Below are positions 34,163 through 59,797 of a stretch of DNA of 64,000 bases, one piece after another (position 1 is the stretch's first letter; every line of letters begins with the position of its first letter). Below the pieces are notes generated by a model that saw only the letters and a list, made by a program, of their open reading frames with translations, did not search any database and was not told where the DNA came from. The stretch is from an uncultured Parachlamydiaceae bacterium (lineage in GTDB: Bacteria; Chlamydiota; Chlamydiia; Chlamydiales; Parachlamydiaceae): contig CAVVXH010000002.1 in assembly GCA_963752155.1 (NCBI GenBank), positions 32,001 through 96,000 of the forward strand, read 5' to 3'. The position numbers and the translations under genes were made by a program.

Positions 34163-34202
34163 ATGCAGAGAGTACTGCTGTCAAATAGGGCCTCTTCAGA
34201 AT

Positions 34203-35865: not shown

Positions 35866-36738
35866 TCAGAAATGTTCAATGATGATTATTTTACCAGCAG
35901 CGCCTGTACCGCCTGCTCCTGAATTGGCTTGCGATGATATCCCTCCTCCACCACCACTACCGGCACCACCAGGGAAACCTCCATTTCCGCCAGTTCCTCC
36001 TGTCGTTCCAACTTTTGCTCCGCCGCCGCCTCCACCACCAGTACCACCACTAACTAAACCTCCAGTTGTAAGAGCAGAATTTCCATTACCACCGTTTAGG
36101 GTTCCTGTTTCTATTCCTCCGGACCCACCGGTTATCTTCACAATAGAATTTGCATTTGTAATATTGCCGCCGGTTCCCCCAGATCTTGCAGTGCTCGTAT
36201 CTCCGCCACCACCACCGCCTCCTCCAGTAGGTAATATATTACCTACTACTGCTTGTACGCTAGTTGATGAAGCTATAGTTCCACCAGTGCCCGTGCTAGC
36301 AGCAATTGAAGGAGCAAATTCAGTATATAAATTACCACCAGAAGAGGCAGAGGTGTTAGTAGTTGTCCCTGCATTTCCAGGATTTCCACCAGCACTTATC
36401 AAATTTCCAAATGTTGTGTTATTCCCCGATGTTCCAGCATTACCGTTTGTGTTATCTGTTGTTTGTGTTACACCACCATTTGCAGATGCTCCCACTGAAT
36501 ATGATTCGGTATCACCAAAAAAAGAAGCAGGAATCGTATAGTATCCTGCTCCTCCAGAACCTCCTCCTCCCCCACCGGAAGATACTGTAGATGATCCTTT
36601 TCTTCCAGAACCACCGCCAGCACCTCCACCCCATAAAAATACTTCAACCCACTGAGTACGAGAGTCCTTAGTCCATGTTCCAGAAGAAGTAAAGGTAGAG
36701 ACTTTAGTTGAACCATTTATACTATTGCGTAAAACCAT
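35866..36738 (-). CDS. Glycine-rich tail fibre/adhesin-like protein, paralogue 2
   Basis: TFTSSGTWTK...VEVFLWGGGAGGGSG...GAAGKIIIIEHF; at the distal end of the tail operon. Confidence 0.75.
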   Translation of the reverse strand: MVLRNSINGSTKVSTFTSSGTWTKDSRTQWVEVFLWGGGAGGGSGRKGSSTVSSGGGGGGSGGAGYYTIPASFFGDTESYSVGASANGGVTQTTDNTNGNAGTSGNNTTFGNLISAGGNPGNAGTTTNTSASSGGNLYTEFAPSIAASTGTGGTIASSTSVQAVVGNILPTGGGGGGGGDTSTARSGGTGGNITNANSIVKITGGSGGIETGTLNGGNGNSALTTGGLVSGGTGGGGGGGAKVGTTGGTGGNGGFPGGAGSGGGGGISSQANSGAGGTGAAGKIIIIEHF

Positions 36739-36750
36739 ATTTACCCCTTT

Positions 36751-37626
36751 TTAGAAGTGCTCGATGACTATTATTTTACCAGCGGATCCTGTACCACCAG
36801 CTCCTGAATTGGCTTGTGCGGATATTCCCCCGCCTCCGCCACCACCTGCACCTCCAGGAGTACCTCCGTTTCCTCCAGTCCCTCCTGTCGCGCCAGCTTT
36901 TGCTCCGCCGCCTCCACCGCCAGCAGAACCACCACAAATTAATCCACCGCTAGTCACAGAAGGATTTCCGTTACCACCATTTAGCGTGCCTGTTTCTATT
37001 CCTGCGGTTCCGCCGGCTACATAAGTAACACCATTTGAATTATTAATTGCCCCGCCAGATCCTCCAGATCTTGCAGTAACAGTATCACCACCGCCGCCAC
37101 CGCCACCTCCTGTAGGTGAGAAAGTAATTACTGCTGCTGTTGTATCTCCTGCGGTATTTCTTCCAGCACCACCAGGATTAGTTACAACGGAGGAAATAGC
37201 ATATGAAGTGTTTAATCCTCCACCGACACCATTGATACCTGATGAAGTTCCTCCGCCTTGGCCCGCACCTCCACCAACAGCTATCATATTTCCAAATGTT
37301 GTATTACCTCCGGTAGTTCCATTATTACCATTTGTCGCATCTACGGTTTGGGCTACTGCCCCACCAGCGCTAGCTCCAATTGTATAAGACTCTGTGGATC
37401 CAAAAAATGAAGAAGGAGCTGCAAAATATCCTGAGCCTCCAGAACCACCACCGCCACCTCCGGAAGATGAAGCGCTAGTTCCTTTTCTTCCGGAAGCTCC
37501 ACCACCACCTCCACCCCATAAAAATACTTCTATCCACTTCGTGCGAGAGTCCTTTGTCCATGTTCCAGAACTAGAAGTATAAGTTGTGATCTTAATTGAA
37601 CCGTTTATAGCATTATTTGTGGCCAC
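36751..37626 (-). CDS. Glycine-rich tail fibre/adhesin-like protein, paralogue 1
   Basis: MATNNAING start, polyglycine tracts, GSAGKIIVIEHF; aligns end to end with its neighbour. Confidence 0.75.
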   Translation of the reverse strand: MATNNAINGSIKITTYTSSSGTWTKDSRTKWIEVFLWGGGGGGASGRKGTSASSSGGGGGGSGGSGYFAAPSSFFGSTESYTIGASAGGAVAQTVDATNGNNGTTGGNTTFGNMIAVGGGAGQGGGTSSGINGVGGGLNTSYAISSVVTNPGGAGRNTAGDTTAAVITFSPTGGGGGGGGDTVTARSGGSGGAINNSNGVTYVAGGTAGIETGTLNGGNGNPSVTSGGLICGGSAGGGGGGAKAGATGGTGGNGGTPGGAGGGGGGGISAQANSGAGGTGSAGKIIVIEHF

Positions 37627-37642
37627 AAGTACTCCTTATTCG

Positions 37643-37945
37643 TTAGAAAGACTCTAACGCTCCTTGTAAATTTACAGATAAAATACTTGCTGCTAACCGT
37701 GCTTTAGCTTCGTTATAGGCGGCTTCTCTCTCAGCTTTGCTGGTATCATCCTCAGGAGGTTTCATAATAGAAAGAGGTCTTACATAATCCTGTAAGTTTT
37801 CCATCCAGATATCTCCCATTGCAGCTTCCTGGGTTTCTTTTACCACGTAACCTGCTGGCGGTTGCCATTGAGTCACTCCATCCCACATAATGACATTGGT
37901 AACCACATTTTTTTGATCTATGACTGCATATCTACTGCTCATCAA
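37643..37945 (-). CDS. Small tail-fibre-associated protein
   Basis: RYAVID..NVVTNVIMWDG..W.PP pattern; lies between fibre genes; AGGAG RBS. Confidence 0.55.
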   Translation of the reverse strand: MMSSRYAVIDQKNVVTNVIMWDGVTQWQPPAGYVVKETQEAAMGDIWMENLQDYVRPLSIMKPPEDDTSKAEREAAYNEAKARLAASILSVNLQGALESF

Positions 37946-37975
37946 TTTCTCCTTTAAAATATTTCAAACACGAGT

Positions 37976-38644
37976 TTAAACGACGGTCAAGTTTCCAACT
38001 GAACTTAGAACTCTCCATGTCGTATTGGCAACTACGCAAAGGCACTCTAAAGCATCTCCAGCGTCTGTCGAGGCTAGGCTTCCGCCAACTCCAGCAGTTG
38101 TTGCCACGTTTCCAAATTTAACTGTTTGGGATGCATTCTGTGCCAATAACCAACCGCCTGCACCATTTCCTGCAATTCTGAAAACGGTTCCTTGTGCTGC
38201 TGTGGCTGGGAGAGTCAAAGTGCATAAGGAGGCATTATCTGCTATATAGCCAGTATTAACAGCGATTGCTTGAGAAGTGCCAGTTACATCTACCCATGAA
38301 GAAACGCCGCCACTGCCACCAGAAGAGGCAGCCCATTTAACACCTGAAGTCTGAGAAGAATCGGCTGTTAAAACAAAATTGTCTGTTCCAACTGTAAGAG
38401 GGGTGAATGTACCTGCTCCTGTGCCAACAAGGATAACTCCTTTTGCTGTATAGTCAGCAAAGCCTATTAAAGTATCTGCTGCTCTGTTTGGGAATGTATA
38501 AACGCCAGCACCAGCAAATTGATTAGTGAGAGTGAAATCTCCACTACCATTATGTGTGACTGTTCTTTTGGTGGTTCCACCACCAATGCTAAATCCAACC
38601 GATAGGTTAGAGATGTCTAGGTTAACTGATGAATTGTGAGCCAT
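37976..38644 (-). CDS. Phage tail fibre-like protein
   Basis: [27 protein letters not shown] shaft motif; C-terminal [10 protein letters not shown]...WRV beta domain. Confidence 0.65.
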
Positions 38645-38838
38645 TTTTTGCCTCTTGTTAAATTTTAACGAAACTCATATCGAGTTGTTTTTACTGTTCT
38701 AGTGACATTACCAGTCGATTTCTGAAAATATTTGAGTCTTTGAATATATGAGTTTCTGTCTGAATTTTTTGAGGTGTGAAAATAGCCTATCTTCGAGCTA
38801 AAAATTAACACTGAGAAGTATATAGCCTCACATTCCTT

Positions 38839-39204
38839 TCATTTTTTAGAGCTGATTTGTTTTAATTTTTGTTTTGGTTTGTTATTTATTTTTGGCGCTT
38901 CCAGCAGTTTGACTTCTTGGGCGATGTATTGCTGGCTTTGAGTAATCAATTGGCTCAGGGAGCTTTCAATAACAAGAAATTTATTTCTCATTTCTTCTAT
39001 TGCTTGCTGAAGTGCAAATATGCGATTGACTTCGGTTTGCTGCTGGAGGAGCAATCTTTTAGGGGCGCAGTCTTTAATGACTTTTGGTTGACCCTGCCCA
39101 TTTTCTTGCCACCAAGACTCTAGATAATTGGGGCAATCTCTTTCCGAAGAACATAGTTTTGCCTTTACGAAAGGACAATTTTCACCGCATGAAGTGCATT
39201 CCAT
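38839..39204 (-). CDS. Hypothetical Cys-rich/coiled-coil phage protein
   Basis: Six Cys in the N-terminal half (CTSCGENCP..C..CP..C), then a heptad helix; co-oriented in the operon. Confidence 0.6.
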   Translation of the reverse strand: MECTSCGENCPFVKAKLCSSERDCPNYLESWWQENGQGQPKVIKDCAPKRLLLQQQTEVNRIFALQQAIEEMRNKFLVIESSLSQLITQSQQYIAQEVKLLEAPKINNKPKQKLKQISSKK

Positions 39205-39220
39205 TGAGTTACCTATTTAG

Positions 39221-39835
39221 TTAAGCTTGTTTTTGACATAAAATTCCTACGACTGCCAATGGCCTCCAAGTGGCTCCATGATTGTGGGGCTGAGAAGCTC
39301 CTATTGCATTTGAAGAACTATTCATCCCTTCTGTTGTTCCTTGTCTTGGTCGTTGATTTTTGGCTCCGTGGGCATAATGCGAACTCGTATTGCTTTGATC
39401 AGAACCAAAAAAGTACTGGTGAGTATGGTTCGGGATTTGATTAATGGTTAGGCCGACACCTGGCTGCTGCCAAGTTCCTGCTACGGTGTTACCTGCTGGT
39501 CCATAAAGACCGCCTCGAAGAGCTAAAACGCAATCCCCTAAAAAATTGATTGGTAGCCATCCATCTGGAGCAACGTTTTGATAAAACCAGCATAAAGTTC
39601 CTGCTGCAAAACCGACCTGATCAAATCTAATCTGATAGTTGCTTGCAGCGCGCCTTATCATAAAAAGATCGCTCGCCACAGCTGATCCATTAGGTAATGT
39701 TGGGAAGAGAGAAATATCAATCGTTCGAACTTTATCAATCGTCACTTGTTTATCGGTTAATCCTTGGCGAATGATCGTTGTATCCCCATCATCTGCAACA
39801 GAAGCGACTGGTAAGCCTGGAATTTGTACTGACAT
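39221..39835 (-). CDS. Tail collar/short fibre-like protein
   Basis: WFYQNVAPDGW collar-like motif; LTINQIPNHTH and QPHNH metal-binding tip motifs; AAGGAG RBS before the ATG at 39835. Confidence 0.7.
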   Translation of the reverse strand: MSVQIPGLPVASVADDGDTTIIRQGLTDKQVTIDKVRTIDISLFPTLPNGSAVASDLFMIRRAASNYQIRFDQVGFAAGTLCWFYQNVAPDGWLPINFLGDCVLALRGGLYGPAGNTVAGTWQQPGVGLTINQIPNHTHQYFFGSDQSNTSSHYAHGAKNQRPRQGTTEGMNSSSNAIGASQPHNHGATWRPLAVVGILCQKQA

Positions 39836-39843
39836 AAATCTCC

Positions 39844-40326
39844 TTAAGGTGTTGGGTACGTTTTTGTCTGGCCCCAAACAAGAATATCTGTAGCTGTGCC
39901 GCCATTAACGATTTGATTTCCTGCTAAAGTTCCTGCCCCAAGACTCAAGGTATTATTCGAAATGACCGTCAAAGTAGGAGCTAATCCTGGTTTTTTTGCT
40001 CCAACGGCAAAAATGTATCGAGTGGGGTTGGCTAAATCTACGGCGGTTAGAGTAATCAAAGTTCCGACTGTCCCGTCATAGGGGAAAAGACCTACTCCAT
40101 TTCCATCGGTCAAAATAGCTAATTCCTCCTGCTGTTTTAAGAAGGCCAGCCAGCGATTTGTGTATCTTCCCAACCAGTTGAACCAATTTCGAGGTGGAAA
40201 TTCTAAACGAGCCCAACCTTCTAATTTTTTTTCAGTAGGCGGTTCAAGAACGTTGTTTTGTCCTGATATTGGATCTACAACATCATTTTCTGCCCATTCA
40301 GGTAAAATTGTAGGTTTAAGCACCAT
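39844..40326 (-). CDS. Baseplate/tail-fibre attachment protein
   Basis: WA...GW...PPRNWFNWL fibre N-terminal anchor motif; follows the wedge genes. Confidence 0.65.
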   Translation of the reverse strand: MVLKPTILPEWAENDVVDPISGQNNVLEPPTEKKLEGWARLEFPPRNWFNWLGRYTNRWLAFLKQQEELAILTDGNGVGLFPYDGTVGTLITLTAVDLANPTRYIFAVGAKKPGLAPTLTVISNNTLSLGAGTLAGNQIVNGGTATDILVWGQTKTYPTP

Positions 40327-40336
40327 TGTTAACTCC

Positions 40337-41092
40337 TTAAGGTATTGGCGGCTGCGAGCCGTTAAACATGATGACTTCGGCTAATTGTCCAGCCCCTGTC
40401 GTATCAATAGGGATTCCAAATTCGGCAAAACCTCCGCCAAAAGTTGGATTAGTCACTCTGCCAGCTTGCACAGCTAGAAGATCGCCTGTATTAATTTCTA
40501 AATTTTCCAAATCAAATGGATTAGCTTCATTAGGTGCGACAAGAAGTAGATCTTCGACGGGGTCCCCGCTAAAAACAAAAGGAAGCGGAACATTGTAAGT
40601 TGCAGTAATGGGAGTGTATTGAACGCCTGCTGGACTGACAGATTGAATAGCAGTAACAAGTTGTTCGGGAGGATTTGGAAACACCAGACCATCAGTGGAC
40701 ATTTGAAAAGCTGCGGGATAATATTCATGGTAACGGATTTTATTCGCTTTTGTGAGGAATTTGAGAACGGTAATGACTTCTTCAGGTGTGCCATTTGCCT
40801 TATTTATAAAAATTTGAAACTTCAGTCTTTCTCTGTAATCTTCATCGGATTCATTTGGTAAACGCGCAAGACCAAGAATTTCACCAAGTCCATCCAGCTG
40901 CATTCCAATTGAGGTTTCCAAGGAGCGTTGAAATTTTAAGTCTTGATCGACATTGTCTATTTCTTGCATTGACGTGACAAAGGCACGAATAAATCTTTGA
41001 AAACGGCTATATTCTCCATCAACGAGACTTTGCTGAAATTGACCTGCCAAAAGGGCAATTGCTCTTTGAACGTGATTGGTTATTCTAACCAT
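40337..41092 (-). CDS. Baseplate wedge protein (DUF2612-like)
   Basis: GMQLDGLGEILGLAR...SDEDYRERLK..I..N..NGT and PAGV; downstream of baseplate J. Confidence 0.78.
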   Translation of the reverse strand: MVRITNHVQRAIALLAGQFQQSLVDGEYSRFQRFIRAFVTSMQEIDNVDQDLKFQRSLETSIGMQLDGLGEILGLARLPNESDEDYRERLKFQIFINKANGTPEEVITVLKFLTKANKIRYHEYYPAAFQMSTDGLVFPNPPEQLVTAIQSVSPAGVQYTPITATYNVPLPFVFSGDPVEDLLLVAPNEANPFDLENLEINTGDLLAVQAGRVTNPTFGGGFAEFGIPIDTTGAGQLAEVIMFNGSQPPIP

Positions 41093-41150
41093 GTCACCTC
41101 CTCAAACAGTAGGGTCAACCATTTTGTTGACGTTAGCATAATGGTTGTTA

Positions 41151-43139
41151 TCATACTGTCACCGTGATTCTTGTTAGATCAAAGACGGATATTTCATTTT
41201 CTGCGATAACGATATCTGCTGTACCAAATAGGGGAGTATCCCCTGGTTCATTCGTGGATGCAATTTGCATCACGCCGCTAGCGATTCCGGGAACACTAAA
41301 AATCTGAGCAAGGACGCGTTGTAATAGAACGTCTATGCCTATACCTAAAGTAGATCCATATGTGTTAATGGCTGCTGCCACTAAGTCTTGACCATTTGGA
41401 GGAAATACTTCCTCTGCATATAGGGTTAAGGCAACCGTAACCCAAATGTAGATTGGGGTGGGGCGGCTAAAATTGATGACTTGGAATTCACCTTGTGAGT
41501 CGGTGATGGTAAACGCAGTATTCCCGAATGTTTGGATACCTGCTGGTTTCGTGGTCCAGATTTTATTTGCGACGTCAGCATCAGTGCCTCCTTGTACGAC
41601 AGCTTCAAAACTTTTTGGAACTCTTCCGCCTTTAATAACCGCCGTTGCTTGTGAAGCTCCTCCGCTGACAGTGAAATCATTGGGGATCATTGTTACTTCA
41701 ATAGCGGTTGCCATATCCATAGTGATGGTTCTATTGGCTGTCCCGCCAACGGTTGCAGAAACAACTTCAGGTTGATTTTGAATCAAGGCAGCAATTACGT
41801 TCATGGTAGCTAAATGAGAAGTTGCAAAGGTGACGGTTGGCAATGTCGTACCATTTAAAACGACGACTATGGTATTTCCTGTGACCAAATCTTGATTTAA
41901 TACGATCAGAATTGGTTCTTGAGTCAATGTACTATTTTCGAAAACTAGAGCAGATATTACCCCAGGTACTTGCTGAAGCAACCTTGCTCTTATAGATTCA
42001 ACTGTGCCAGCTCCCAAGAGTCGAAGCGAATTGTTTCGACGTATTCTTAATTCGGCATCCGTTTCAATGAAACGTCCTGTCACTCCAGCCTTAAGGTTAT
42101 TTATTGATATCCAACCTGAAATGGGAGTGAGGATTTCGGTCAATGTATTGACAGGGGCAGCGATTGGACCAAAATCTTGGGATAGAAAAACAACAGGAGT
42201 AGATTGGGCAGTGATGCTTAAATTAGTTCCAACAGCAATGGAAAAAGGAACGTCTGACTCATCAGCATTGATGGTTATGGTTCCATCCATATTATCTATG
42301 GCCGCCACAGGTTGAATCCCAGCATTGACTACGGAAGCAAGGGCTGCTGTTAATGCGTTATTTGATGCTGGGGTTTGATAAGTAATTGCATAGGTAGGTT
42401 GGCTTGCTCCGCCAGTGATCACGATTGAATTGACTATGGCATTGAACCCAACATTTGGAATGATGGTGATAATATTTGGATTCGTTGGTGTTGCAGAAAG
42501 AACGGCAGGGGAAGTGGCAATCTGTGCAGCTAATAGAGCCAAAGTTGTGTTGTTATTCGTAGTAAAAGGTACCGCTGCTAATTGAACTCCATTGATGGTA
42601 GCAACTATTGAATTGGAAGTAACAAAACTCCCTGTAAAGGTGATGATAGGCAGCGAATATGAAAAGGCCTGATTGTTGATTAGAGCCGTATAAATTTGAG
42701 CTGCCAAAGCGCTAACTTGAATAGTTGCGGATGCTGCCTGTGTTCTTGTAATAATCGTGTTTTGTTGAGCAAAGAACACAGCTCCGGTATCGGGGATTCT
42801 AGCGAGGGCTCCTTGATTGATAAGAGTGCCATCTAATCCAGCGCAGACGCCTATAACTCTAGTTTGTTGAGCGGCAAGTCGAGTGATGCCATTTAATTGA
42901 ACGACGTTATCGAGGCTGATCCCTTCCGCGAAGTTGGGATATTGGCTGAAATAAACATCCTCCATATTTTCCCAAAGATCGGCTAATACTTTTGAAAATA
43001 CTCCGATTTGCTGGCCAAATATAGATTGCGGATCTAAGTTGATATCGCCAAATTCTGCGAGCAGCTGATTTTCTAAATCAGTTTGAATATCGACTAATCG
43101 TTTAGCTTTAAATCCCTGAGCGGTTAAACCAAATGTCAT
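41151..43139 (-). CDS. Baseplate J/gp47-like protein with inserted domains
   Basis: FGLTAQGF, AEGISLD, GRFIETDAELRIRR, VQGGTDADVA.KIW..KPAGI.TFG, INFSRP. Confidence 0.9.
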   Translation of the reverse strand: MTFGLTAQGFKAKRLVDIQTDLENQLLAEFGDINLDPQSIFGQQIGVFSKVLADLWENMEDVYFSQYPNFAEGISLDNVVQLNGITRLAAQQTRVIGVCAGLDGTLINQGALARIPDTGAVFFAQQNTIITRTQAASATIQVSALAAQIYTALINNQAFSYSLPIITFTGSFVTSNSIVATINGVQLAAVPFTTNNNTTLALLAAQIATSPAVLSATPTNPNIITIIPNVGFNAIVNSIVITGGASQPTYAITYQTPASNNALTAALASVVNAGIQPVAAIDNMDGTITINADESDVPFSIAVGTNLSITAQSTPVVFLSQDFGPIAAPVNTLTEILTPISGWISINNLKAGVTGRFIETDAELRIRRNNSLRLLGAGTVESIRARLLQQVPGVISALVFENSTLTQEPILIVLNQDLVTGNTIVVVLNGTTLPTVTFATSHLATMNVIAALIQNQPEVVSATVGGTANRTITMDMATAIEVTMIPNDFTVSGGASQATAVIKGGRVPKSFEAVVQGGTDADVANKIWTTKPAGIQTFGNTAFTITDSQGEFQVINFSRPTPIYIWVTVALTLYAEEVFPPNGQDLVAAAINTYGSTLGIGIDVLLQRVLAQIFSVPGIASGVMQIASTNEPGDTPLFGTADIVIAENEISVFDLTRITVTV

Positions 43140-43498
43140 GTTAGTAATTCCTGCGTTATTGTGATCTGCCCTTGGACAGTGTCCACAGAGAAAGTCACGG
43201 AATAAATACGCCGTGTATCGTCAAAATTACTTGTGAAACTGAGAATTTGGTTTACACCTCGAGTAGAAAGAATCTCTTGCTTGAGAACGCTTTCCATTCG
43301 AATTTGATTGGGGGATTTGATGAAAAAATCTTGATAATAGGAAACGCCTGCAGTGATATCTAAGAACCATTCTCCCAAAATAAAGCGCAAGCGAATAGCT
43401 AGATTTTGAGCGATCTGGTCTTGATCCTCAACGAATTGCAAGTCAAAATCTTGTAAGAGTAAATCGCCAGTTGTTGTGTCTAGCGCTATATCTTTCAT
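43136..43498 (-). CDS. Baseplate sheath-initiator (gp25/gp46-like)
   Basis: DIALD..TGDL, IAQNLAIRLRFILGEWFLD..AGV; upstream of baseplate J. Confidence 0.8.
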   Translation of the reverse strand: MKDIALDTTTGDLLLQDFDLQFVEDQDQIAQNLAIRLRFILGEWFLDITAGVSYYQDFFIKSPNQIRMESVLKQEILSTRGVNQILSFTSNFDDTRRIYSVTFSVDTVQGQITITQELLT

Positions 43499-43585
43499 GA
43501 AGCCTCGTTAACTCAAAAACGTTTCCTAATACGTTTACACATGGGTATTTGAGTTAATTAAGGCTATTGGATACTTGAGTAGTTT

Positions 43586-44236
43586 TTAAGGGATTGTACC
43601 CTTAAGAGCATCTATAGATGCTTTCAATGAGGCATATGTCGGCACAGTGCCTTGGAATATTGGGTTTCCAACTGCGGTTGTCACAGAGGTTGTCAAAATT
43701 CCTAGTATTTTACTGACAATATCGAGAACTTCTGTAGAGCTGTTCCCGATCGCCACTTTACCAGCAGTTTCAATTTGAATGTCACCACTTTCTTTGATTC
43801 TTATATTAGAGCTTTTATAAGTTAAAAGCACGTCCGAGTTGTTCTCAGCTAAAGAATTTTCTGTAAAAGGAAAAAGCCCCATGATTGCAACAGCATCGGA
43901 TAAGTCGAATTTCCTTGGATCGTTGGGTGCTACATTGCCTCCTACTGATTTCCAAAGATCTGTACTCCTTTCAATAAACAAAAGCAAGCAGGTGTCGCCT
44001 TGAACAACTGGGAAAGTCAAACTAGCACCGCCTGCTTTTGGAAAAATTACTGGGACATTACTTAAAATAGGCAAATCCAATGTTGTCCCATCTAAATAAC
44101 TCTTTTTCAAGGCCGGTTGAATTTCAGCTTTTTGTTTCGTATAGTCATAAGAAACAATGACTCCTGGCAAAGCGGTATGGACATCATAAAGCTGAAATTG
44201 AATTGCTTGTCTTAAAGCATCAGTGATCGTCGTCAT
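43586..44236 (-). CDS. Baseplate spike (Gp138/gpV-like)
   Basis: VHTALPGVIVSYD, LSNVPVIFP, FPVVQGDTCLLLF.ER, RKFDLSDAVAI.G. Confidence 0.85.
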   Translation of the reverse strand: MTTITDALRQAIQFQLYDVHTALPGVIVSYDYTKQKAEIQPALKKSYLDGTTLDLPILSNVPVIFPKAGGASLTFPVVQGDTCLLLFIERSTDLWKSVGGNVAPNDPRKFDLSDAVAIMGLFPFTENSLAENNSDVLLTYKSSNIRIKESGDIQIETAGKVAIGNSSTEVLDIVSKILGILTTSVTTAVGNPIFQGTVPTYASLKASIDALKGTIP

Positions 44237-44454
44237 TCTTCATCACCTTGTGCTATTGTTAAACAATCAAGGAGACCATCGCGGATTTTGGATAAAGCCC
44301 AACCTAATTCTTCTAAGCCATCATCGTTATTTAAATAATGATTTACAAACTGATCCCTTTTATATCGATCGCCCCAGCCACAAAATTCAATATTTAGTAA
44401 CTGGTCGAGTTTTTCTCTTATTCTTCCTAAATCTTCTAAACGTTCTGCTTTCAT
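44233..44454 (-). CDS. Small acidic hypothetical protein
   Basis: ATGA overlaps with both neighbours indicate translational coupling; ~73 aa. Confidence 0.55.
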   Translation of the reverse strand: MKAERLEDLGRIREKLDQLLNIEFCGWGDRYKRDQFVNHYLNNDDGLEELGWALSKIRDGLLDCLTIAQGDEE

Positions 44455-45314
44455 ACTAAAATCACTTCCATTATTGATCGCCAATTTGGACCGAATAAAT
44501 CTCCCTCATGCTTTATAGAAAATACCGCATAAGGTCCATTAAGTCCGATTCTTTCAGATTTGATATTAAGCCTATCACCAGGGAGAATATCAGGGCGAAG
44601 AGTGGTTTGAACGATATATCCAGTTCGAGGGCCATCCAGATAGACAGCCGCTCTCTTATCTGTATAGCGCTGAGGAATTCCGATCATGCCAGTGTCGGCA
44701 TTGATTTCTATGGCTGGTTTTGAAGTTGTTCCATATTGAGGAATGATTTGAAGCTTTCCATTTTGAACGCTCCATCTCAGACCGAGTCTTAAAACTGCTT
44801 TATCTAGGGCGTTTTTACCCATTCCAGCATATTCGAACCCTTGCTCATAAACAACATTGTCAGTAGCAGTAAACTCAGAAATAGATAGCCCAAGTTGATC
44901 GGCGATCGTTTGGACAACCTGACGGACTGGGACCTTTTCCTTGAAGCTAACGGTAATAGACTTCTGGTTAAGAATTCTTTCTCCGTCTCCGCAGTCAAGT
45001 GTAGTGACGATTTCTGGCTGATCATAGGCATGGCTGACTTGGGTGGTATTACCAATGAAAAGCAATTGTTCACCCGCGTCTTCTCGATACCCGGCGGATA
45101 AGATAACTTGGTCTCCATAATCTTTAATCCTGTTCCTATTTTCTTGACTGAGGTTCCAAATTTTTACAGATGCTGTATTGGTTGACCAGCTCAAATTCTT
45201 CTGAATAGAAAAGGAAATGCGAAGAGCTGACAGCTTAATTGAGCCAATATAGCCATTAAAAGTATTGTTTCTCAATCCAACTTCTACGGATGCTATTCGA
45301 TCAAACCTGGCCAT
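44451..45314 (-). CDS. Baseplate hub protein
   Basis: ISFSIQK..NTASVKIWNL, LSAGY, DCGDG, WSVQNGKLQI, TGMIGIP, HEGD..GPNW. Confidence 0.8.
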   Translation of the reverse strand: MARFDRIASVEVGLRNNTFNGYIGSIKLSALRISFSIQKNLSWSTNTASVKIWNLSQENRNRIKDYGDQVILSAGYREDAGEQLLFIGNTTQVSHAYDQPEIVTTLDCGDGERILNQKSITVSFKEKVPVRQVVQTIADQLGLSISEFTATDNVVYEQGFEYAGMGKNALDKAVLRLGLRWSVQNGKLQIIPQYGTTSKPAIEINADTGMIGIPQRYTDKRAAVYLDGPRTGYIVQTTLRPDILPGDRLNIKSERIGLNGPYAVFSIKHEGDLFGPNWRSIMEVILV

Positions 45315-48452: not shown

Positions 48453-48469
48453 AATTATCTCCTAAGTAT

Positions 48470-50881
<2,412 letters not shown>

Positions 50882-50892
<11 letters not shown>

Positions 50893-51064
50893 CTTCTACC
50901 CCATACAACACGAGCACAGAATGAAGCTCGAAGCCTTGCTGATAATAGGTGTCATATTTGACATCGAATAACTTCCATGCATTGGCTGTCACTTCATTGA
51001 GGAAGTCATTGAGCCTGTCTTCTAACGTCATAAAAGAAGTGTCTGAAATAATTTTTGCTTTCAT
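50882..51064 (-). CDS. Small hypothetical protein
   Basis: 60 aa, AAGGA RBS, LEDRLNDFL...DVKY...SVLVLY; overlaps the next gene. Confidence 0.55.
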
Positions 51065-51081
51065 GGTTTTTCAATTCCTTT

Positions 51082-51438
51082 TTATTGTCCTTCGAGCCTT
51101 AAAACTAAGTATTTATAATGGTTTACCAGCCCCATTGCTGGTGCGTTTTGCCATGGAAAAACCTGAACCACTTCAAAAGTTTTTCCGAAGAAAAGAACAA
51201 GGTCGGGATTTACACTTGTGACCGTATTGATGAGGGTTGAAGTAAAAAGCTTATAGCCTTCTGAATCTCTTCTTGCCTCTGGCAGCTCCTGCATTTCTTC
51301 ACCCTTCATGGGCTGGATGCTGGAAGTTATTTGAGTATCTGTGTAAGCGCCATCAATCCAGCGCCCATTCGTATAACCTCCGCTTTGAAAGCGACGAAGT
51401 ATTACTGGAGAGCGAAAGATTTCAAATGGCGATGTCAT
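51082..51438 (-). CDS. Head closure/head-tail adaptor
   Basis: GGYTNGRW, SIQP..LPEARR, DLV.F.GKTFEV...W...HYK; neck-module position. Confidence 0.7.
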   Translation of the reverse strand: MTSPFEIFRSPVILRRFQSGGYTNGRWIDGAYTDTQITSSIQPMKGEEMQELPEARRDSEGYKLFTSTLINTVTSVNPDLVLFFGKTFEVVQVFPWQNAPAMGLVNHYKYLVLRLEGQ

Positions 51439-51917
51439 TTGAGTACCACCTTATAGCGCACTGACTGCACCATCTGACCGAAGTCAATTAAAGGTTTGGA
51501 GCTTTTTTTAATAGCGATAGTCCTTGGAGAATTGGGAGGGGAAACAATTGCACGGATTTTTTGAACAATTAGTTTTGTCATTAGCTGTCCTATCAATCCT
51601 AACGATTTTTCTGTTGTTCTTTTACCGTCCAAAATTTTAGTGTATTCGCCCTGTATCGCCTTGTTTATTAATGCCTTGTTCTCATCAAAGCTTGTAGACA
51701 TAAAGGGTCTGGCTGGAATTGTATTCGTCCCGAATTCATTCCCTGCTGCTATTTGAGGAATTGAAAGTCCAGCAGTTTGCTTCCGCTGTCCTTTTACCTG
51801 TGTCTTTGTGGCGGTTCCCTCTTGAAAACCGACCTTGACGTAGGAGCCATCGAGCAAAGCAATTTGCCGTTGGATTTCATCAAATCCTAGATCCTTATCC
51901 TTGACAACAGCACGCAT
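51435..51917 (-). CDS. Neck/tail completion protein (HK97 gp10-like)
   Basis: VKVG, NEFGT..IPARPFM, PPNSPRTI..K.SSKPLID.G. Confidence 0.78.
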   Translation of the reverse strand: MRAVVKDKDLGFDEIQRQIALLDGSYVKVGFQEGTATKTQVKGQRKQTAGLSIPQIAAGNEFGTNTIPARPFMSTSFDENKALINKAIQGEYTKILDGKRTTEKSLGLIGQLMTKLIVQKIRAIVSPPNSPRTIAIKKSSKPLIDFGQMVQSVRYKVVLK

Positions 51918-52308
51918 TGATCACCGCAAAATTAGGGGGTAAATTCGTTACAGTTGAACCGATGACGGTTCGTTTGATCAAATCTTTGTACAACCTGCCA
52001 TATTGGGTGGCATTCAGGATGGAAGAATCGGGCGAGATTGCAAGCCCAATGGACAGTTCTCCCTCGCTGAGATTAGTAGCCACTCCTGTTTGAGGACTGG
52101 TTTGCAATTGAAGCCAATGAGCCAAAAGATAGACGTAAGCTAGCACGCCGCAGCAAGATAAGACCTGTTCATTGACTTGGCATCTCAACAAACCAATCAT
52201 GGTATTGTAGTTAGCCAACTTCGTTGGATCGGTCGTATAGAACTGCGGTGCAATAACGAATAACGTATCAATTATCGTTTGACTTGGTATTGGATCCGAA
52301 ATGCTCAT
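51895..52308 (-). CDS. Head-tail connector (DUF4054-like)
   Basis: APQF, LLAHWL, SEGELSI, TQYGRLY; start placed at 52308. Confidence 0.75.
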   Translation of the reverse strand: MSISDPIPSQTIIDTLFVIAPQFYTTDPTKLANYNTMIGLLRCQVNEQVLSCCGVLAYVYLLAHWLQLQTSPQTGVATNLSEGELSIGLAISPDSSILNATQYGRLYKDLIKRTVIGSTVTNLPPNFAVINACCCQG

Positions 52309-52651
52309 TTTCCTCTTCCTCCGCTTGATGAGAAATTTTATGAAGCTGTTTTTTAGCTGCATCTACGACTTTGTCACGGCCATCTTCATCGATAATTCGA
52401 GTCAGATAGGCGTGGTCATAAATTTGAGGGATGAGTTTCATCATCTCCTTAACAGACTTCTTGCCATCCGCTTCCTTGTCTGAAGATTCGGGAATAATCA
52501 CGATGATCCCTTCTTCGACCCTATGTTGAAATAAAGGGTGAAGGAGGAGGGCTTTGAGTTCGCCCTCCGGAATCTCATTGATCCCTGGCATCAGGCGGCT
52601 GGTGAAGTTACAATAGTAGACGTTCTTACCGTTGTACTTGACTAAAGCCAT
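52268..52651 (-). CDS. Hypothetical head-associated protein
   Basis: LMPGINEI motif; starts at the capsid gene stop. Confidence 0.6.
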   Translation of the reverse strand: MALVKYNGKNVYYCNFTSRLMPGINEIPEGELKALLLHPLFQHRVEEGIIVIIPESSDKEADGKKSVKEMMKLIPQIYDHAYLTRIIDEDGRDKVVDAAKKQLHKISHQAEEEENEHFGSNTKSNDN

Positions 52652-53580
52652 TAGATTCCCTCCCCGATCGACAGTGAAAGTGGATAATAGATGATGATCC
52701 CGCCGTAACGAGATTCGCAGTTTACGATGAACTCAAGGCCACGTTCTTGAGGTGGATATTGAGTAAATGGCATTGGAATCTCCATCGTGAGCTTATCAGG
52801 GTTCTTCTCATAAGCGATCATGATGTCAACACCGCCAGGGCCTGCACCCTTCAATTCTGGAACCCAGTCCACAGTTGTGATGAACGGATTATTTTGAATA
52901 AAATATTCCAAAATCGTCGTATCGCTGTTAGCGGAACGAGGAGTTGAAGAGATCAACGTGTATTGATCGATAGGAAGAATCAACGTGTTAGGCATTTCAA
53001 CCCCATTTGTGAGGCCTACAATACCGTTGGACAATTGATTCATATCGCGCAAGATTTGATCAGGTGTTTTATTGACCCAAAGTGTAGAAGCGCCTGTACC
53101 ATCTGCAGGAACAGAAGCTGCTGGAATGTTTGGGTTATTAGTCAGACCAAGGATGTTGGAACCATTATCTCCAAACCAGGCAAGCTTATTCACCTTTTGG
53201 TCATTGGCTCTTCGAGTGGCGTTTGCCTGACGTTGTGTAAGACTTCTGCCTACAAACATCGCGGCTCTAATTTCCTGCATCGAATACCCATAGCTGGCTC
53301 CAATGGATTTCACTGGAGTGATGAATTCCTTACCGCGAATATCGCAACGAGGGAAGTCATCGGCATAGCTCGAAATGATTCGTGCAAGACCTGTTTCTTC
53401 AAACGATTGGTAAGTGATCGATTCCGCACCCGCACCAGCTTCTGTGCTAACAGGAATTAGCTTGATCGCTTTTAGCGGAGGGAATTCAATGTCGTACGAC
53501 TTTGATTTTATGGACTCGAGCTCACGAGCAAAGAACGCAGTCTCTGCCGAGTCGAGATTAACGCTTACAATTCTATCCAT
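52651..53580 (-). CDS. Major capsid protein (DUF2184/HK97-like)
   Basis: FFARELE, YGYSMQEIRAA, AWFGD..GLTNNPN, PNTLILP, RYGGIIIYYP. Confidence 0.9.
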   Translation of the reverse strand: MDRIVSVNLDSAETAFFARELESIKSKSYDIEFPPLKAIKLIPVSTEAGAGAESITYQSFEETGLARIISSYADDFPRCDIRGKEFITPVKSIGASYGYSMQEIRAAMFVGRSLTQRQANATRRANDQKVNKLAWFGDNGSNILGLTNNPNIPAASVPADGTGASTLWVNKTPDQILRDMNQLSNGIVGLTNGVEMPNTLILPIDQYTLISSTPRSANSDTTILEYFIQNNPFITTVDWVPELKGAGPGGVDIMIAYEKNPDKLTMEIPMPFTQYPPQERGLEFIVNCESRYGGIIIYYPLSLSIGEGI

Positions 53581-53592
53581 TTTACCTTCTCC

Positions 53593-54375
53593 TTAGTTCG
53601 GCAAGTTGATTTCTAATGTTGCAAGAGCACCAGCTGTAGCTCCAACGGTGTACCTTGCAGTTGGAAGGGCGATTGCACGGCCCCCATCTGAGTCCGCACG
53701 GAATCCACCAGGAAGCAGAAGACCATTAGCGGCAAATCTCCAGTACACTGGGCTGTCGCTTGTTAGGTTTTGTTCAGCTGCAACATAGATACGGCCTCGA
53801 GTGAGGAGAGATACGCAATCTCCTTGGAAATAAATCGGATTCCCAAATGATCCGAGCGGATTCAATGGGTTCGGTTTATTTTGAGTTCTTGCGCCTACTC
53901 CGTAGAATGTATCTTGAGTGGTGTTTGTTATAGTTGCGGTGGCTTGCGATGCGCCGGCTGTGACTACGAATGAGTTAACGACGGCGACACTTCCCTCTGT
54001 GGCTTTCACTGTGAGGGTATGGTTGCTTGGATCGCTCACGGCTGCAGAAGCAATGTGAGGTTGAGCCAAGATCGCAGCTGCAATGGCATTCATTGTGGCT
54101 AGACTGGAAACCGCAAACGTGATGGGTGCTAACGCTACCCCATTGACGCTGACATTGATCACGTTGCTCGTGACAAGGTCGGCACTTATGACAATGGTTG
54201 ATAGATTAGACTGGGGGAGGCGGACTACGTAATCTTGACCGATTACTTTTGCAAGTCCGAGCCCTATATTAAAATTCTCAAATGCTATAGGAGAAAGGAC
54301 GTTTTTAAAGCCGGAATCGGCTAAAAGACCTACGCTCCCGACATCCATTAAAAAGGGATAGCTTAGTTGTGGCAT
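53593..54375 (-). CDS. Head decoration/cement protein with inserted domain
   Basis: Lies between scaffold and capsid; GDCVSLLTRGRIYV...VYWRF...GGFR. Confidence 0.75.
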   Translation of the reverse strand: MPQLSYPFLMDVGSVGLLADSGFKNVLSPIAFENFNIGLGLAKVIGQDYVVRLPQSNLSTIVISADLVTSNVINVSVNGVALAPITFAVSSLATMNAIAAAILAQPHIASAAVSDPSNHTLTVKATEGSVAVVNSFVVTAGASQATATITNTTQDTFYGVGARTQNKPNPLNPLGSFGNPIYFQGDCVSLLTRGRIYVAAEQNLTSDSPVYWRFAANGLLLPGGFRADSDGGRAIALPTARYTVGATAGALATLEINLPN

Positions 54376-55655
54376 GGTATTTTACCTCCGGGCTTGTAAC
54401 CATTTTTCATCTTGTCGATCATTGCCTGGCGAGCCATGGCGGAATCAGCAGGTTGATGATCGAACTTAGTTCTGTATTCAACTGGAGTTGCAATGACTTG
54501 AGATGGGGCAGGGGTCATATCTTCGAGCAGAGCATCAAATCTCGCTTGAATATAGACTGCAGTTTTTCCATCTAAATTTACGTTCTTTTGGCGAGCCTTG
54601 ATGACTTCCTTTTTGATTTCCAGATCGGACATATCATCAATTCTAGCTAAGGTTTTAGAGTCCAAGACACTCTCTGCAACTTTTTGCAGTTTGACCCGCT
54701 CTTTAACCAGAGATCTGATAGATGCGGCGTCCATATTGTTGTATTTGTCGTTCTCTCTTTTTTCCTTGTCTTGTGGCTTTAAGGGAACGCGTTCTCCATT
54801 GGGAGCTTTGACAGGAGTTTCATGGGTTGCATAAGGATTTTCCTTAGACATGTAACCCACTTCTTTTTCTTCCTTTTCTTCTGCTTCGTCTTCCTCTTCT
54901 TTGAGGTCGACATCCCCATTTTTTATTGAATTAAGTTCAGCAGAAAGCTTGTCTTTTTCTTCAGCTATTCTGCTATTTTCTGCTTCGAGATTTGCGATGC
55001 GGGCAAGCAGCTGCTCAACTTGATTAGCTACATTGTCCTCCATCAAAATCTCGTCATCGTCAATTTTGACTTTCCTTTTAGCCATATTGGCCTCCTCTAT
55101 TAAGATTTCTTCTGCATCGAAACTATCTAATGCGATTCTTGCCTCGTTGCCTGCTCTGGCATTGTCAACAATGCTTAAGTGGTTGTATTTGATATTGGAT
55201 TGACGGAAGTTATAAGGCTGGCCGTTGTAGCTTCCTTCTTCCGGGATGAGATCGACGGTGTAACCGAGAGATAGTTCTCTACGGTTTTTGTCAGTAACGT
55301 CTTTAACGCTTGCAAGATCTGTAATTACTAAATTTGAAAGGACAAACTCACCGTCTTGGGTAATTGTTTCCCCTGTATAGCCAATGGCAAGACGCTTGGC
55401 ATTTTCAGCCGAGACAAGGCGTTCTTGAGGATGCCCATTTGTCACAGGAATCATTTTCATGGTGTCCAGACTGTCTATTTTAAAAACTTCGTCAGGATGA
55501 CGCAGTTCTTTGCGAATAGTTCCATCTGGGTTTTTATAGAGAAAAACACCCGTGCGGGTGACTATGGCATTGGCTTTGATGTACCCTTCATCTGTAATGA
55601 AGGCATCGCCTTTGACTTGTCCTCTATCAAAACGAGCAACATCATTTAATTTCAT
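54363..55655 (-). CDS. Prohead protease/scaffold (DUF2213)
   Basis: TDEGY, RTGVFLY, PVTNGHP, RELSLGY, NHLSIVDNARAG; acidic coiled-coil C-terminus. Confidence 0.9.
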   Translation of the reverse strand: MKLNDVARFDRGQVKGDAFITDEGYIKANAIVTRTGVFLYKNPDGTIRKELRHPDEVFKIDSLDTMKMIPVTNGHPQERLVSAENAKRLAIGYTGETITQDGEFVLSNLVITDLASVKDVTDKNRRELSLGYTVDLIPEEGSYNGQPYNFRQSNIKYNHLSIVDNARAGNEARIALDSFDAEEILIEEANMAKRKVKIDDDEILMEDNVANQVEQLLARIANLEAENSRIAEEKDKLSAELNSIKNGDVDLKEEEDEAEEKEEKEVGYMSKENPYATHETPVKAPNGERVPLKPQDKEKRENDKYNNMDAASIRSLVKERVKLQKVAESVLDSKTLARIDDMSDLEIKKEVIKARQKNVNLDGKTAVYIQARFDALLEDMTPAPSQVIATPVEYRTKFDHQPADSAMARQAMIDKMKNGYKPGGKIPCHN

Positions 55656-55792
55656 TTCTCTACCCAAAAATCAAAATGTTAAAATCACAACTTTTTCAAC
55701 TCGAATAAGTTGGTTAACTGGTTAGCTGGAGGTTGGGTAGAGGTGTATGGATTACTGGAAATCTTATTGGTTGGATAGATGATTGGTTGAGT

Positions 55793-56646
55793 CTAGATAT
55801 CTAAGAGTCCTTCTAAAACTGGAACAGCGACACATCGGCAATTTATATCAGTTCCCGGATGGCCAGTATCTTTCGGTGGATTATCCCAACGAAATTTCTT
55901 ACCATCATGGGCTTTGTGGGTAGAACGAACTCTTTCATCGCCTGCCGTTTGCCAGATGTATTCTTCGACACCTAATTCTTGCTGCCTAAGTTTTGTTAAA
56001 CTCGCATTCAATTTGGATGTCTGATCTCTCGCGATTAATTTCGCGCGCCGTCTAGTAATTCCGAATCTTTCTTGGATTGATTGAGTCATTGAGTGAAATC
56101 TGCTTCCTTCCTGCAAGCCCCTCTCGATGATCTGTGCGACCTGCTCGAGTTCTTGCTGCTGGAAGAGAGCGGATTAATTGAGCATTTTGGCTTCCGAACA
56201 ATTTTAACTGGTCTTGCAAGCCAAGGCTGGTCGATAAAAATATCAATCCCGAAAACGGAATTATTGATTCTATCGAACTGCCTTTTATTGTATCTGGCGA
56301 CTTGTACGCCAATTATTTTTGATTCCGCTATGGTTTCTTCAACTTTACCCTTTATAGCGTGTATTACAGAATTTATCAATCTTTTTAATGCATCAGAAAA
56401 ATCATCGCCCCTGGCCGGAGATGTTGGATAGAGCTGTTCCACCTCTAAAATCAGAGAGGGGAGTGCTGGGATAACGATTTCTTTGATAAGGTTTTTTAAT
56501 TCGTTTGTTAGAGAGAAAAGCACTCTCATATATTCTCTTTCCAGAGAAGATGGCGGATGCCATTTAGGAGGTTTTTTCATCTTTGCTGTTTGAAGCTTCC
56601 CCATGCGCCTCTGTTTAATTTTAGCAAGCTGATCAATAGAAACCAT
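55793..56646 (-). CDS. Minor head protein (Mu gpF/SPP1 gp7-like), split by two +1 frameshifts
   Basis: RAKLIARDQ, YIWQTAGDERVR..H, PG.DINCRC; three ORF pieces join if single bases at ~56220 and ~56158 are removed. Confidence 0.82.
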
Positions 56647-56648
56647 GG

Positions 56649-58107
56649 TTATACCTGTGAGCGATATCTGATTCCTGTAGGCATAAAATCAGGCCCAATG
56701 CCTGGAGGAGGGGTTTCTTGTGCTTTTTTCTCTTTTTCTAATTCAGCCACTTCTTCTGGATCAAAACCATTTTTACGGCCTTCAAGATCCACTTCAGTAT
56801 TCATAGACCAACGGTTGCCACCGAAACGAGAAACAGCCACTTCAGCAGGATCAAGAACTCCTCTGTCGAGATAAATGGCGTCTGTTTCCGCGACGATTTT
56901 TCTGACGATGGCTTCTTGTTCTTCGGTGTTTTGCCATAAGGGGACAAATTGGATGGACCAGTTGTCCGGTTCGATTGCCAGTGAAGGATCCATTTTTAGA
57001 GAGCATGATGTAGCGAGTAAGCTTTTCAAGGACTGGTTTAAGCTTGGATTCTTGTTCTTGCTTAACCATATCGTAAAAATTTCTGACATCGTTATCTCCA
57101 GTGGAGTTCATTCCGGCGGCGCTTCTTCCAAAAAGGAGGGATACTGGAATACCAGAGACCGCAGATAGAGCTAGCATAAAACGATCGAGAAGCTCAGGGA
57201 TGCCAGAGATGTTGGTTGAGGCTTTTTCATATTTCTCCTCTGCATCCAATATCATCGTATTGGTTGCGCCTTTGGTTAAATTGAGAATATCAAGCCGTTT
57301 CATGACCTGATTGTCAGCACATTGTGAAGCGATTAATTCCGCGAGATTGGGAATGGAAAGAGTGTAATTGACGAAGTCTTGCATGATAAGCCCTGCATTA
57401 GCAAAGGCCGTGGAGTAGTTACGAAGCTCATCGTAGATTGATTGAATAAGGGGATCGCCCCAACCATTATTGAAATTTTGCTGCCTTGGAGGCAGTATAG
57501 ACCAGTCTACACGTAGAATTCGTGAATGATGTACATAGAATAGAGCTCCTGTGCGAGTGTCATTGACCGTATAGACATTTGGATAGCCATAATTCGGGCT
57601 ATTCAGATCCTTTTCGAAAGTCCCATCTCTGCTGAAAGATTGATAGCGATCGAATACATGGAGCCATTTTATATCCCTAATATTTCTCTCGTCGACAGGC
57701 TCTTCAAGAGGTAAGCCATCGGCAATTCCCATCACGCAAAGAGCACCTCCATACAATCTGGCCCACCGAAGCAGAGTGATCAAATTGAAGTTGGCTTTGA
57801 TGGATTCCATTTTACGATTGATGTCTTGTCCTGAATCGCCCTCGATTTCCCATCCTTGCCTGACCATTTCGGATGGTACAATATCCATGATTCGGCGAGT
57901 GACGCCGTCAGATCGATACAATTGATCCAGTTCGGCTTGTTCGAATATTTTCTCCAGGCGAAAGTGAGCATTGACGTTCTTATCGCGCCCTCGCATGCCA
58001 AGCCCTGTCAGGACATTTATCCATCCATCAGTTTTGACAAATCCGTCATTATGAGGGACGCGACTTTGTTCTTCAGCGGATTTTTTCTCAAAATTATACG
58101 TACCCAT
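56649..58107 (-). CDS. Portal protein (DUF1073-like), split by one +1 frameshift
   Basis: DGW.NVLTGLG, ARLYGG, VHHSRIL, SGIPVSLLFG.S..GMN, YD; continues into F.PLWQ..E.E after removing one base at ~56975. Confidence 0.88.
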
Positions 58108-59783: not shown

Positions 59784-59797
59784 TCCTTAATTCTACA

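Follow-up and report, generated by a model that had tools for sequence, protein, structure and literature searches.

What kind of element places the genes of a contractile-tailed virus particle in the genome of a chlamydia, when to our knowledge only small single-stranded DNA (ssDNA) microviruses have been characterised from these bacteria? The question is raised by a stretch of 64,000 nucleotides from an uncultured Parachlamydiaceae bacterium (assembly GCA_963752155.1, contig CAVVXH010000002.1, positions 32,001 to 96,000), here called the window, in which a block of virion genes occupies positions 35866 to 58107. Plain coordinates below are those of the window, and coordinates with the prefix G000 are those of the whole assembly, in which C2 is the contig that holds the window. 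We find that the block is very probably the virion module of a chlamydial phage-plasmid of the type represented by the megaplasmids of Criblamydia sequanensis CRIB-18 and of 'Rubidus massiliensis' (pRm2), integrated here into the host chromosome.

In the list of open reading frames (ORFs) of the window, all 32 ORFs between 58107 and 35866 lie on the minus strand. Profile scans covered the 30 ORFs from 35866 to 56646, and the portal region at 56649-58107 was scanned separately. Among the 30, Pfam matched 18 at an E value of 0.01 or lower (15 above the curated cut-off) and PHROG matched 25. The features, in the order of the genes, are as follows.

56649..58107, minus strand: portal (PF06381, E 8.6e-81; phrog_146, E 5.9e-91)
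55793..56646, minus strand: MuF-like minor head protein (PF04233, E 3.8e-27; phrog_324 across both pieces)
54363..55667, minus strand: DUF2213 head maturation protease/scaffold (PF09979, E 3.6e-40; phrog_530, E 1.2e-85)
53593..54375, minus strand: head cement/decoration protein of the E217 gp24 / Pam3 gp6 type (PF22758, E 1.1e-18)
52651..53580, minus strand: major capsid protein, HK97-type (PF09950, E 2.6e-72; phrog_264, E 2.9e-94)
50365..52651, minus strand: head-tail connector set, made up of a 127-aa protein, a DUF4054-like adaptor, a Neck1/tail completion protein, a gp28-like collar, a 60-aa ORF and the tail terminator (phrog_1983; phrog_302; phrog_222, E 6e-41; phrog_939; PF23961, E 7.6e-22)
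48470..50356, minus strand: tail sheath (DUF3383) with an N-terminal insertion domain (phrog_205, E 5e-106; PF11863, E 1.3e-26)
48018..48452, minus strand: tail tube (phrog_280, E 4.5e-44; PF11681)
47372..48018, minus strand: tail assembly chaperone with an overlapping extension in the -1 frame (PF21822, E 6.6e-25)
46279..47385, minus strand: tape measure, 368 aa (phrog_8125, E 5.5e-13; PF10145 under its cut-off)
40337..46279, minus strand: baseplate region, with a Dit-like protein, a Pam3 gp18 plug, an E217 gp41 hub, an 83-aa ORF and the central spike (PF18352), followed by a gp25-like wedge, a J-like wedge (662 aa) and DUF2612 (PF21821, 4.7e-31; PF22479, 1.5e-18; phrog_196, 1e-66; PF18352, 2.7e-33; PF22759)
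within 40337..46279, minus strand: matches of the baseplate wedge and DUF2612 proteins (phrog_120, 3.9e-30; phrog_6, 2.3e-49; phrog_6277, 2e-30)
35866..40326, minus strand: fibre region of five small ORFs and two tandem glycine-rich paralogues (PF21722 on both paralogues; weak tail-fibre PHROGs)

Read from 58107 down to 35866, the predicted order is portal, MuF, DUF2213 protease/scaffold, cement, major capsid, four neck proteins, tail terminator and sheath, then tube, chaperone, tape measure, Dit-like protein, plug, hub and spike, and lastly gp25-like wedge, J-like wedge, DUF2612 and fibres. This order is that of a textbook myovirus late operon, and the block does encode a full contractile-tailed particle module of the E217/Pam3 type. 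In the chaperone overlap, seven T are followed by a G at 47635-47641, and this T-run heptamer is a plausible candidate for a slippery site. The tape measure proteins of free phage relatives are 359-360 aa long, which we regard as the same length as the 368 aa here. A tailocin or contractile injection system, meaning a tail without head genes, does not fit this gene set, in which capsid, portal, protease, cement and terminase are present.

The relatives of the block point to a plasmid. The initial annotation had mentioned phage-related genes on a Criblamydia plasmid, and the capsid proved 100% identical at the protein level to that of C. sequanensis CRIB-18 plasmid 1 (NZ_LK031773.1 / LK031773), a circle of 89,524 bp; in the other 29 matching plasmid records capsid identity is below 60% throughout. 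From the fibres to the portal, 23,297 of 24,534 aligned bases are identical to NZ_LK031773.1 (95.0%), and this 24.5-kb block upholds the proposal that a tailed double-stranded DNA phage, or a particle derived from one, is present in a chlamydial genome. DNA comparison further showed that the whole plasmid backbone is collinear in G000:C2:65704-159664, about 94 kb, with DNA identities of 90% for the recombinase, 91% from TerL to DUF1064, 94% for the early genes and 93% for the block of the 548-aa gene, primase-helicase and ParA. Cargo lies at the same three sites in both copies and differs in content. By its sequence, then, the copy described here is a further, chromosomal copy of a plasmid-borne phage already in the databases.

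The remaining phage genes were found at a distance from the block, which the initial annotation had described as a complete virion operon. The set from portal to fibres was confirmed, but the portal and MuF genes are frame-broken as assembled and no terminase lies within or beside the block, so that TerL is not adjacent to the portal. A search of the whole genome located TerL outside the window at G000:C2:116380-117576, on the same strand and 26 kb upstream of the portal, and TerL together with a TerS-like gene spans G000:C2:116380-118212. Farther upstream of TerL lie the TerS-sized ORF, an N6/N4 DNA methylase and DUF1064, and the early region holds exonuclease, RecT and HNH genes, of which the exonuclease/RecT pair is conserved. 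A tyrosine recombinase is encoded between TerL and the portal (C2:112330-113313), and the fibres are followed by a 548-aa protein, a primase-helicase, a 168-aa protein and ParA.

Among these additional genes, the recombinase relates the element to the classic plasmids of chlamydiae. Over at least 95% of its length the recombinase is 59% identical to its counterpart on the Waddlia plasmid, 57% to that of Simkania and about 50% to Chlamydia pGP8-D, with matches in 112 Chlamydia plasmid records, and it is assigned by these similarities to the chlamydial plasmid Pgp7/8 family. The primase-helicase matches 111 Chlamydia plasmid records, but only 6 records of any organism cover at least 80% of the protein. 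In all seven chlamydial contigs with enough sequence the four-gene block with ParA and primase-helicase adjoins the fibres, and the recombinase was seen in six of the seven, so that phage structural and packaging genes lie on one replicon with plasmid partition and replication genes.

A free relative allowed the two gene sets to be told apart. The IMG/VR entry G405, a complete relative, measures 44,492 bp at 38.9% GC and carries a terminal repeat of 127 bp; its capsid is 77%, TerL 67%, portal 62% and sheath 57% identical to those of the element. It carries homologues of the early exonuclease, RecT-like and HNH genes, and its TerL directly adjoins the portal. Recombinase, ParA, primase-helicase and the 548-aa gene are all absent from G405. 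The lack of plasmid genes in G405, their presence in the chlamydial contigs and the Pgp7/8-type recombinase together argue for a phage-plasmid, in which a myovirus genome of about 44 kb is interleaved with core genes of the chlamydial plasmid lineage and with cargo.

How this element is joined to the chromosome was established from its two ends. The left junction lies between 33703 and 33704 and the right junction between C2:159664 and C2:159665, and two features of the window meet at the left one.

33703..33825, minus strand: 5' stump of parA, 41 codons (tblastn, 41 of 260 residues, 100%)
32937..33703, plus strand: 5' part of the interrupted host gene, whose frame runs on across both flanks

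The remainder of parA ends at C2:159664, and the plasmid map is thus opened at one point within parA. The 3' part of the host gene, which encodes ankyrin repeats and a patatin-like phospholipase according to Pfam, resumes at G000:C2:159665, and the joined flanks form one reading frame of more than 1,200 codons. At the crossover, host and plasmid share only 3 bp, TGT, with no att-like repeat. Because the N-terminal part of the host gene had no match in the 30 relatives searched, no empty site was shown in any relative, and an intact paralogue in the same genome (G000:C6:~286400-289700) was used instead; it aligns straight through the junction. The element of about 94 kb was opened in its own parA and inserted into the host ankyrin/patatin gene. 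The copy here is accordingly not an extrachromosomal circle, being integrated with parA split.

The initial annotation had regarded a chimeric join at 33.7 kb as the outcome that would overturn its reading, and the boundary turned out to be a real insertion junction, as indicated by both junctions, the in-frame host ORF and the paralogue. A chimeric assembly, or a contaminant joined to a chlamydial contig from 33.7 kb on, is suggested by a rise in GC at the boundary, from about 0.33-0.42 to 0.40-0.46, and by an assembly rich in errors. We nevertheless hold it to be extremely improbable, since the two junctions fall at a single point of the plasmid map and a single in-frame point of the host gene, within one contig of 350 kb, the intact paralogue confirms the frame, and the closest relatives are chlamydial. 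The block had also been described as contiguous with topA-SWIB and dprA. Both genes were confirmed (TopA-SWIB at 26500-29115, DprA at 29120-30274), but the contiguity is only a loose one that passes through the insertion junction: DprA and the fibres are separated by a Na/H exchanger, the 5' half of the interrupted host gene, the junction, the parA stump and an aminoglycoside-phosphotransferase-family (APH) gene.

The same junctions bear on whether the element is an ordinary temperate prophage with its own integrase and attachment site. A tyrosine recombinase gene does lie within it, at C2:112330-113313, yet this gene is internal, between TerL and the portal, in all copies that show it, and belongs by similarity to a plasmid family. 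The junctions, moreover, fall within parA and a host ORF with three shared bases and no att-like repeat, and we give such a prophage hardly any credence. An integron-like reading of the recombinase and a one-way array of GNAT and NUDIX genes was dropped because the orientation of the genes did not fit; attC sites were not searched for.

The distribution of the element was followed through its capsid: a sample of 400 other genomes from the phylum contained 11 carriers. Ten of the copies are 94-100% identical and occur in five families (f1, f6, f9, f16 and f30), and one is 52% identical. The last, on G289:C2 (L016, L033, L034; family f38), belongs to a distant module whose portal is 31% identical, and it hints that the phylum has tailed-phage genes of a second lineage. 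A search of the named collection returned 13 loci with a capsid identity of at least 94%; five carry chlamydial titles, six are labelled 'uncultured bacterium', one Verrucomicrobia and one a Desulfobacteraceae bin. This agrees with the initial reading, as near-identical loci occur in chlamydia-titled records and no cultured phage exceeds 42%: none of the 1,426 matching phage records has a capsid identity above 42.4%, and the closest cultured phage is Faecalibacterium phage FP_Brigit at 42%. The locus in the Desulfobacteraceae bin (L047) is a contig of 3,058 bp with a capsid 94% identical, and its placement most likely reflects mis-binning. In IMG/VR, 17 of 73 capsid loci reach at least 94%, and a graded series continues down to 41%. 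Carrier contigs measure 69.5-98.4 kb, and one metagenome contig of 88.8 kb spans the block. Parts of the stretch were present in 20 of the 24 sequencing runs listed, from 15 studies, with a best share of 0.66; contigs from the RNA library X19 cover parts of the block, which does not show transcription.

Outside the closest group, the copies share 70-82% DNA identity. The ratio of nonsynonymous to synonymous substitution (dN/dS) for 22 virion genes was 0.00-0.18 in every pair with an estimable dS, apart from a single value of 0.57 at a dS of 0.01; many pairs were saturated. The virion genes are under strong purifying selection. In a tree of six concatenated virion proteins the chlamydial copies form one clade, sister to the free phages, and within it members of different families pair with a support of 1.0: the copy here (G000, f1) with the Criblamydiaceae plasmid, and G259 (f1) with G277 (f6). 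The element tree conflicts with the host families, and the element has moved between them.

From gene content, collinearity, both junctions, distribution, purifying selection and incongruent phylogeny we infer a course of events in which particles are built, filled by the terminase and carry plasmids between families. The plasmid form would replicate through its primase-helicase and be partitioned by ParA, and the Pgp7/8 recombinase would resolve multimers or mediate the exchange of cargo. On induction, the late operon would build E217/Pam3-like particles and a T4-type terminase would fill them with DNA. Such particles would explain how plasmids typed as non-mobilizable (the PLSDB typing of the C. 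sequanensis plasmid, whose record is circular) move between families. The integration seen here would have arisen by recombination at the shared 3-bp sequence, within parA, into the ankyrin/patatin gene.

Several points weigh against an active phage-plasmid, and the frameshifts considered further below are to be counted with them. Particles, induction and packaging are predictions from genes for every member of the group. The Pfam and PHROG scans of the element recognised no lysis genes and no clear repressor, the sole candidate being a weak CI-like match (E 3.5e-5). On G245:C3, a whole contig of 80,697 bp, the genes from portal to fibres are present together with ParA, primase-helicase and recombinase; TerL, the methylase and DUF1064 were not found on this 80.7-kb contig, reflecting either gene loss or a cut contig. 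None of three complete contigs tested from metagenome-assembled genomes (MAGs; G245, G142 and G361) showed a terminal overlap, and the plasmid state of the MAG copies is therefore deduced from size and content only; MAG bins can, in addition, include mis-binned plasmid contigs. Finally, at 69.5-98.4 kb the plasmids and contigs are roughly double the length of the free relative with its 44 kb, and a whole plasmid would probably not fit in one head. Transfer might then proceed by partial headfuls that recombine, the exonuclease/RecT pair being conserved, or the particle might serve another use.

This mismatch in size leads to a reading in which the particle genes have been domesticated as a gene transfer agent (GTA)-like system or generalised transducer that moves pieces of plasmid or chromosome among chlamydiae sharing a protist host. 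Strong purifying selection acts on all virion genes of copies in contigs of at least 69 kb, although the free relative is only about half as large as these replicons. Copies with 95% identity carry different cargo at shared sites, transfer between families is clear while conjugation genes are missing, and the exonuclease/RecT pair has been kept. Against this, replication, partition and recombination genes of its own, a patchy occurrence (11 of 400 genomes) and a descent separate from that of the hosts mark the element as selfish rather than host-owned, and the capacity of the capsid is itself a deduced value. A gene transfer agent in the usual sense is host-owned, vertically inherited and without its own replication genes, which does not describe the element. 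We consider domestication unlikely and continue to prefer a phage-plasmid. A bolder proposal, possible in our view though doubtful, is that the megaplasmids are working phage-plasmids, whose particles would be the first tailed virions of chlamydiae and a vehicle that carries plasmids lacking conjugation genes, or headful-sized pieces of them, between families in shared protists. If true, bacteria in which genetic manipulation is very difficult would possess a transduction system of their own in nature.

Whether the copy in this genome could still form particles depends on how its broken frames are understood. As assembled, seven genes are frameshifted relative to the plasmid, namely portal (one indel), MuF (two), TerL (one), the TerS-like gene (one), the methylase (two), the 548-aa gene (one) and AbiEi (two short ORFs), and parA is split. 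The portal consists of a 418-aa piece (56851-58107) and a C-terminal piece in another frame (56649-57089), with one extra nucleotide at 56974 compared with the C. sequanensis plasmid, whereas portal homologues in relatives have 485-521 aa. MuF is spread over three frames through extra bases at 56217 and 56156 relative to the same plasmid; its homologues have 283-306 aa. We at first read these frameshifts as the decay of a defective prophage, a reading that was withdrawn once rpoB, rpoC and two tRNA synthetase genes were also found broken. In this assembly, at G000:C6:~9240-14000 beyond the window, rpoB is broken into seven or more pieces in different frames and the beginning of rpoC into four or more, and two of three class-I aminoacyl-tRNA synthetase loci are broken (C11:321282-323116; C12:22381-24050). 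Since essential genes cannot be pseudogenes, the assembly holds clustered indel errors, and with rpoB broken in the same assembly we make no claim of decay for this copy. In keeping with such errors, completeness is 80% in only 22 contigs, as against 85-99% for two congeners and mostly at least 90% for the other genomes listed.

The view that the copy is a dead remnant, frameshifted in earnest after integration and unable to form a DNA-filled particle, keeps some weight all the same. At least eight frameshifting indels affect portal, MuF, TerL, the TerS-like gene, the methylase and the 548-aa gene, all of them full-length in relatives, and parA is certainly split. The extra bases of portal and MuF are absent from the DNA-metagenome contigs X1 and X2, those of MuF also from X19. 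The 33.7 kb of host DNA that the window contains showed no split gene, which speaks against assembly error as the cause. On the other side stand the broken rpoB, rpoC start and synthetase loci, the low completeness of the assembly, and a dN/dS of at most 0.18 against the plasmid at a dS of about 0.1, which leaves little time for neutral decay. The two genomes of the same genus gave no baseline for indels because, at 69-76% DNA identity to G000, they are too distant. We regard a dead remnant as possible, though as the weaker account of this copy.

Apart from the virion module, the element carries cargo, of which an island of about 21 kb extends from the portal to the recombinase (58319-64000 in the window and on to G000:C2:112320). 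Two cargo features fall in the window.

58319..59584, minus strand: AbiEii toxin and AbiEi antitoxin (PF08843, E 1.5e-35), the cargo nearest to the portal on its upstream side, here and in the plasmid
34155..35135, plus strand: APH gene (PF01636, E 3.2e-40), at the same place in the C. sequanensis plasmid

The AbiEi antitoxin is in two short ORFs here, and its homologues in relatives measure 197-209 aa. Besides the AbiE pair, the island comprises MarR, an RNHCP-domain gene, several GNATs, GrpB, APH genes, a beta-lactamase-fold gene, LRR, PEP mutase, Ada and a 587-aa fusion of NUDIX, methyltransferase and CPT-like kinase. The plasmid has metal efflux and arsenite resistance genes, the metal efflux genes occupying its portal-recombinase cargo site. 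In the second cargo region an ABC transporter is split into ORFs of 168 and 338 aa (G000:C2:127574-129081; L003:11574-13081), and its relatives have 569-588 aa.

Within the virion module, a domain of about 100 aa recurs in the sheath (49712-50020), twice in the J-like wedge (42372-42656 and 41610-41906) and once in the cement protein (53914-54216), with 33-46% identity between copies (E 1e-9 to 1e-20). The two glycine-rich fibre paralogues (36751-37626 and 35866-36738) share 66% identity. It is at this distal fibre end that the module varies: homologues of the two paralogues were found only in G361 and the C. sequanensis plasmid, and in G088 (L022:281-5777) their place is taken by eight ORFs in tandem, 167-273 aa long, of which one matches C1q weakly. 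One Pfam scan of seven small ORFs returned nothing useful.

Phage genes on chlamydial megaplasmids are already in print. For the C. sequanensis plasmid only 7% of the proteins were reported to be "of phagic origin" (Bertelli et al. 2014, PMC4208316). The available excerpts attribute 20 phage proteins to pRm2, the plasmid of 80.9 kb from 'Rubidus massiliensis' (Bou Khalil et al. 2016, PMC4791399), place a 'Phage group' among chlamydial plasmid genes (Kostlbacher et al. 2021, PMC7846284) and give a P. massiliensis plasmid of 92 kb at about two copies per cell (Benamar et al. 2017). As far as those excerpts show, the plasmids of Kostlbacher 2021 and pRm2 are the same plasmids as the element here, and the excerpts of PMC7846284 and PMC4791399 describe no complete virion module, myovirus type, free phage relatives, selection or chromosomal copy. 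In a full-text literature search, with supplementary gene lists outside its range, no account of these elements as a complete virion module, a tailed phage or myovirus, or a phage-plasmid came to light. The analysis at the level of the virion is not found in the reports of 2014, 2016 and 2021. The initial annotation had missed these three papers, the displaced terminase and the wider setting of the block as a module within an integrated plasmid-phage hybrid of 94 kb.

The present copy is of value because a complete module for a tailed-phage particle is physically tied to a chlamydial chromosome, so that, unlike for a MAG bin or a plasmid contig, a binning artefact is impossible, and because it discloses the full anatomy of the element. 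The 'phage genes' of the chlamydial megaplasmids prove to be a complete myovirus joined to the core of the classic plasmids of chlamydiae. Selection on the virion genes in at least five families, together with movement between families, suggests a testable route of horizontal transfer in obligate intracellular bacteria. Isolates bearing the plasmids exist, and particles can be sought in them directly, which makes tailed phages and transduction in chlamydiae open to experiment.

Compared with known systems, the element stands apart from the chlamydiamicroviruses, which are small ssDNA Microviridae without tail genes. These viruses (Chp1, Chp2 and others are named in the available part of PMC5010888) also infect chlamydiae and have nothing in common with the element here. 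The likeness to E217 (PB1-like) and Pam3 is one of families, as their sequences were not aligned here. Pfam families named after both, which we take to derive from cryo-electron microscopy structures, match the hub (gp41), collar (gp28), cement (gp24/gp6) and plug (gp18), alongside a DUF3383 sheath, and the predicted particle is probably a simple-baseplate contractile-tailed virion. P1, N15 and SSU5 are phage-plasmids, in which phage morphogenesis and packaging genes share one replicon with plasmid partition and replication genes. The element differs from them in that its maintenance genes come from the chlamydial plasmid lineage, its replicon has roughly double the length of the free relative's genome and it is known from genes alone. 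The closest known system is the CRIB-18 plasmid, with the same backbone order and with recombinase, AbiE pair and APH gene at the same positions. That copy is a free circle of 89.5 kb, whereas the copy here is chromosomal through the break in parA and carries other cargo, including GNAT, NUDIX, APH, beta-lactamase-fold, LRR, PEP mutase and Ada genes.

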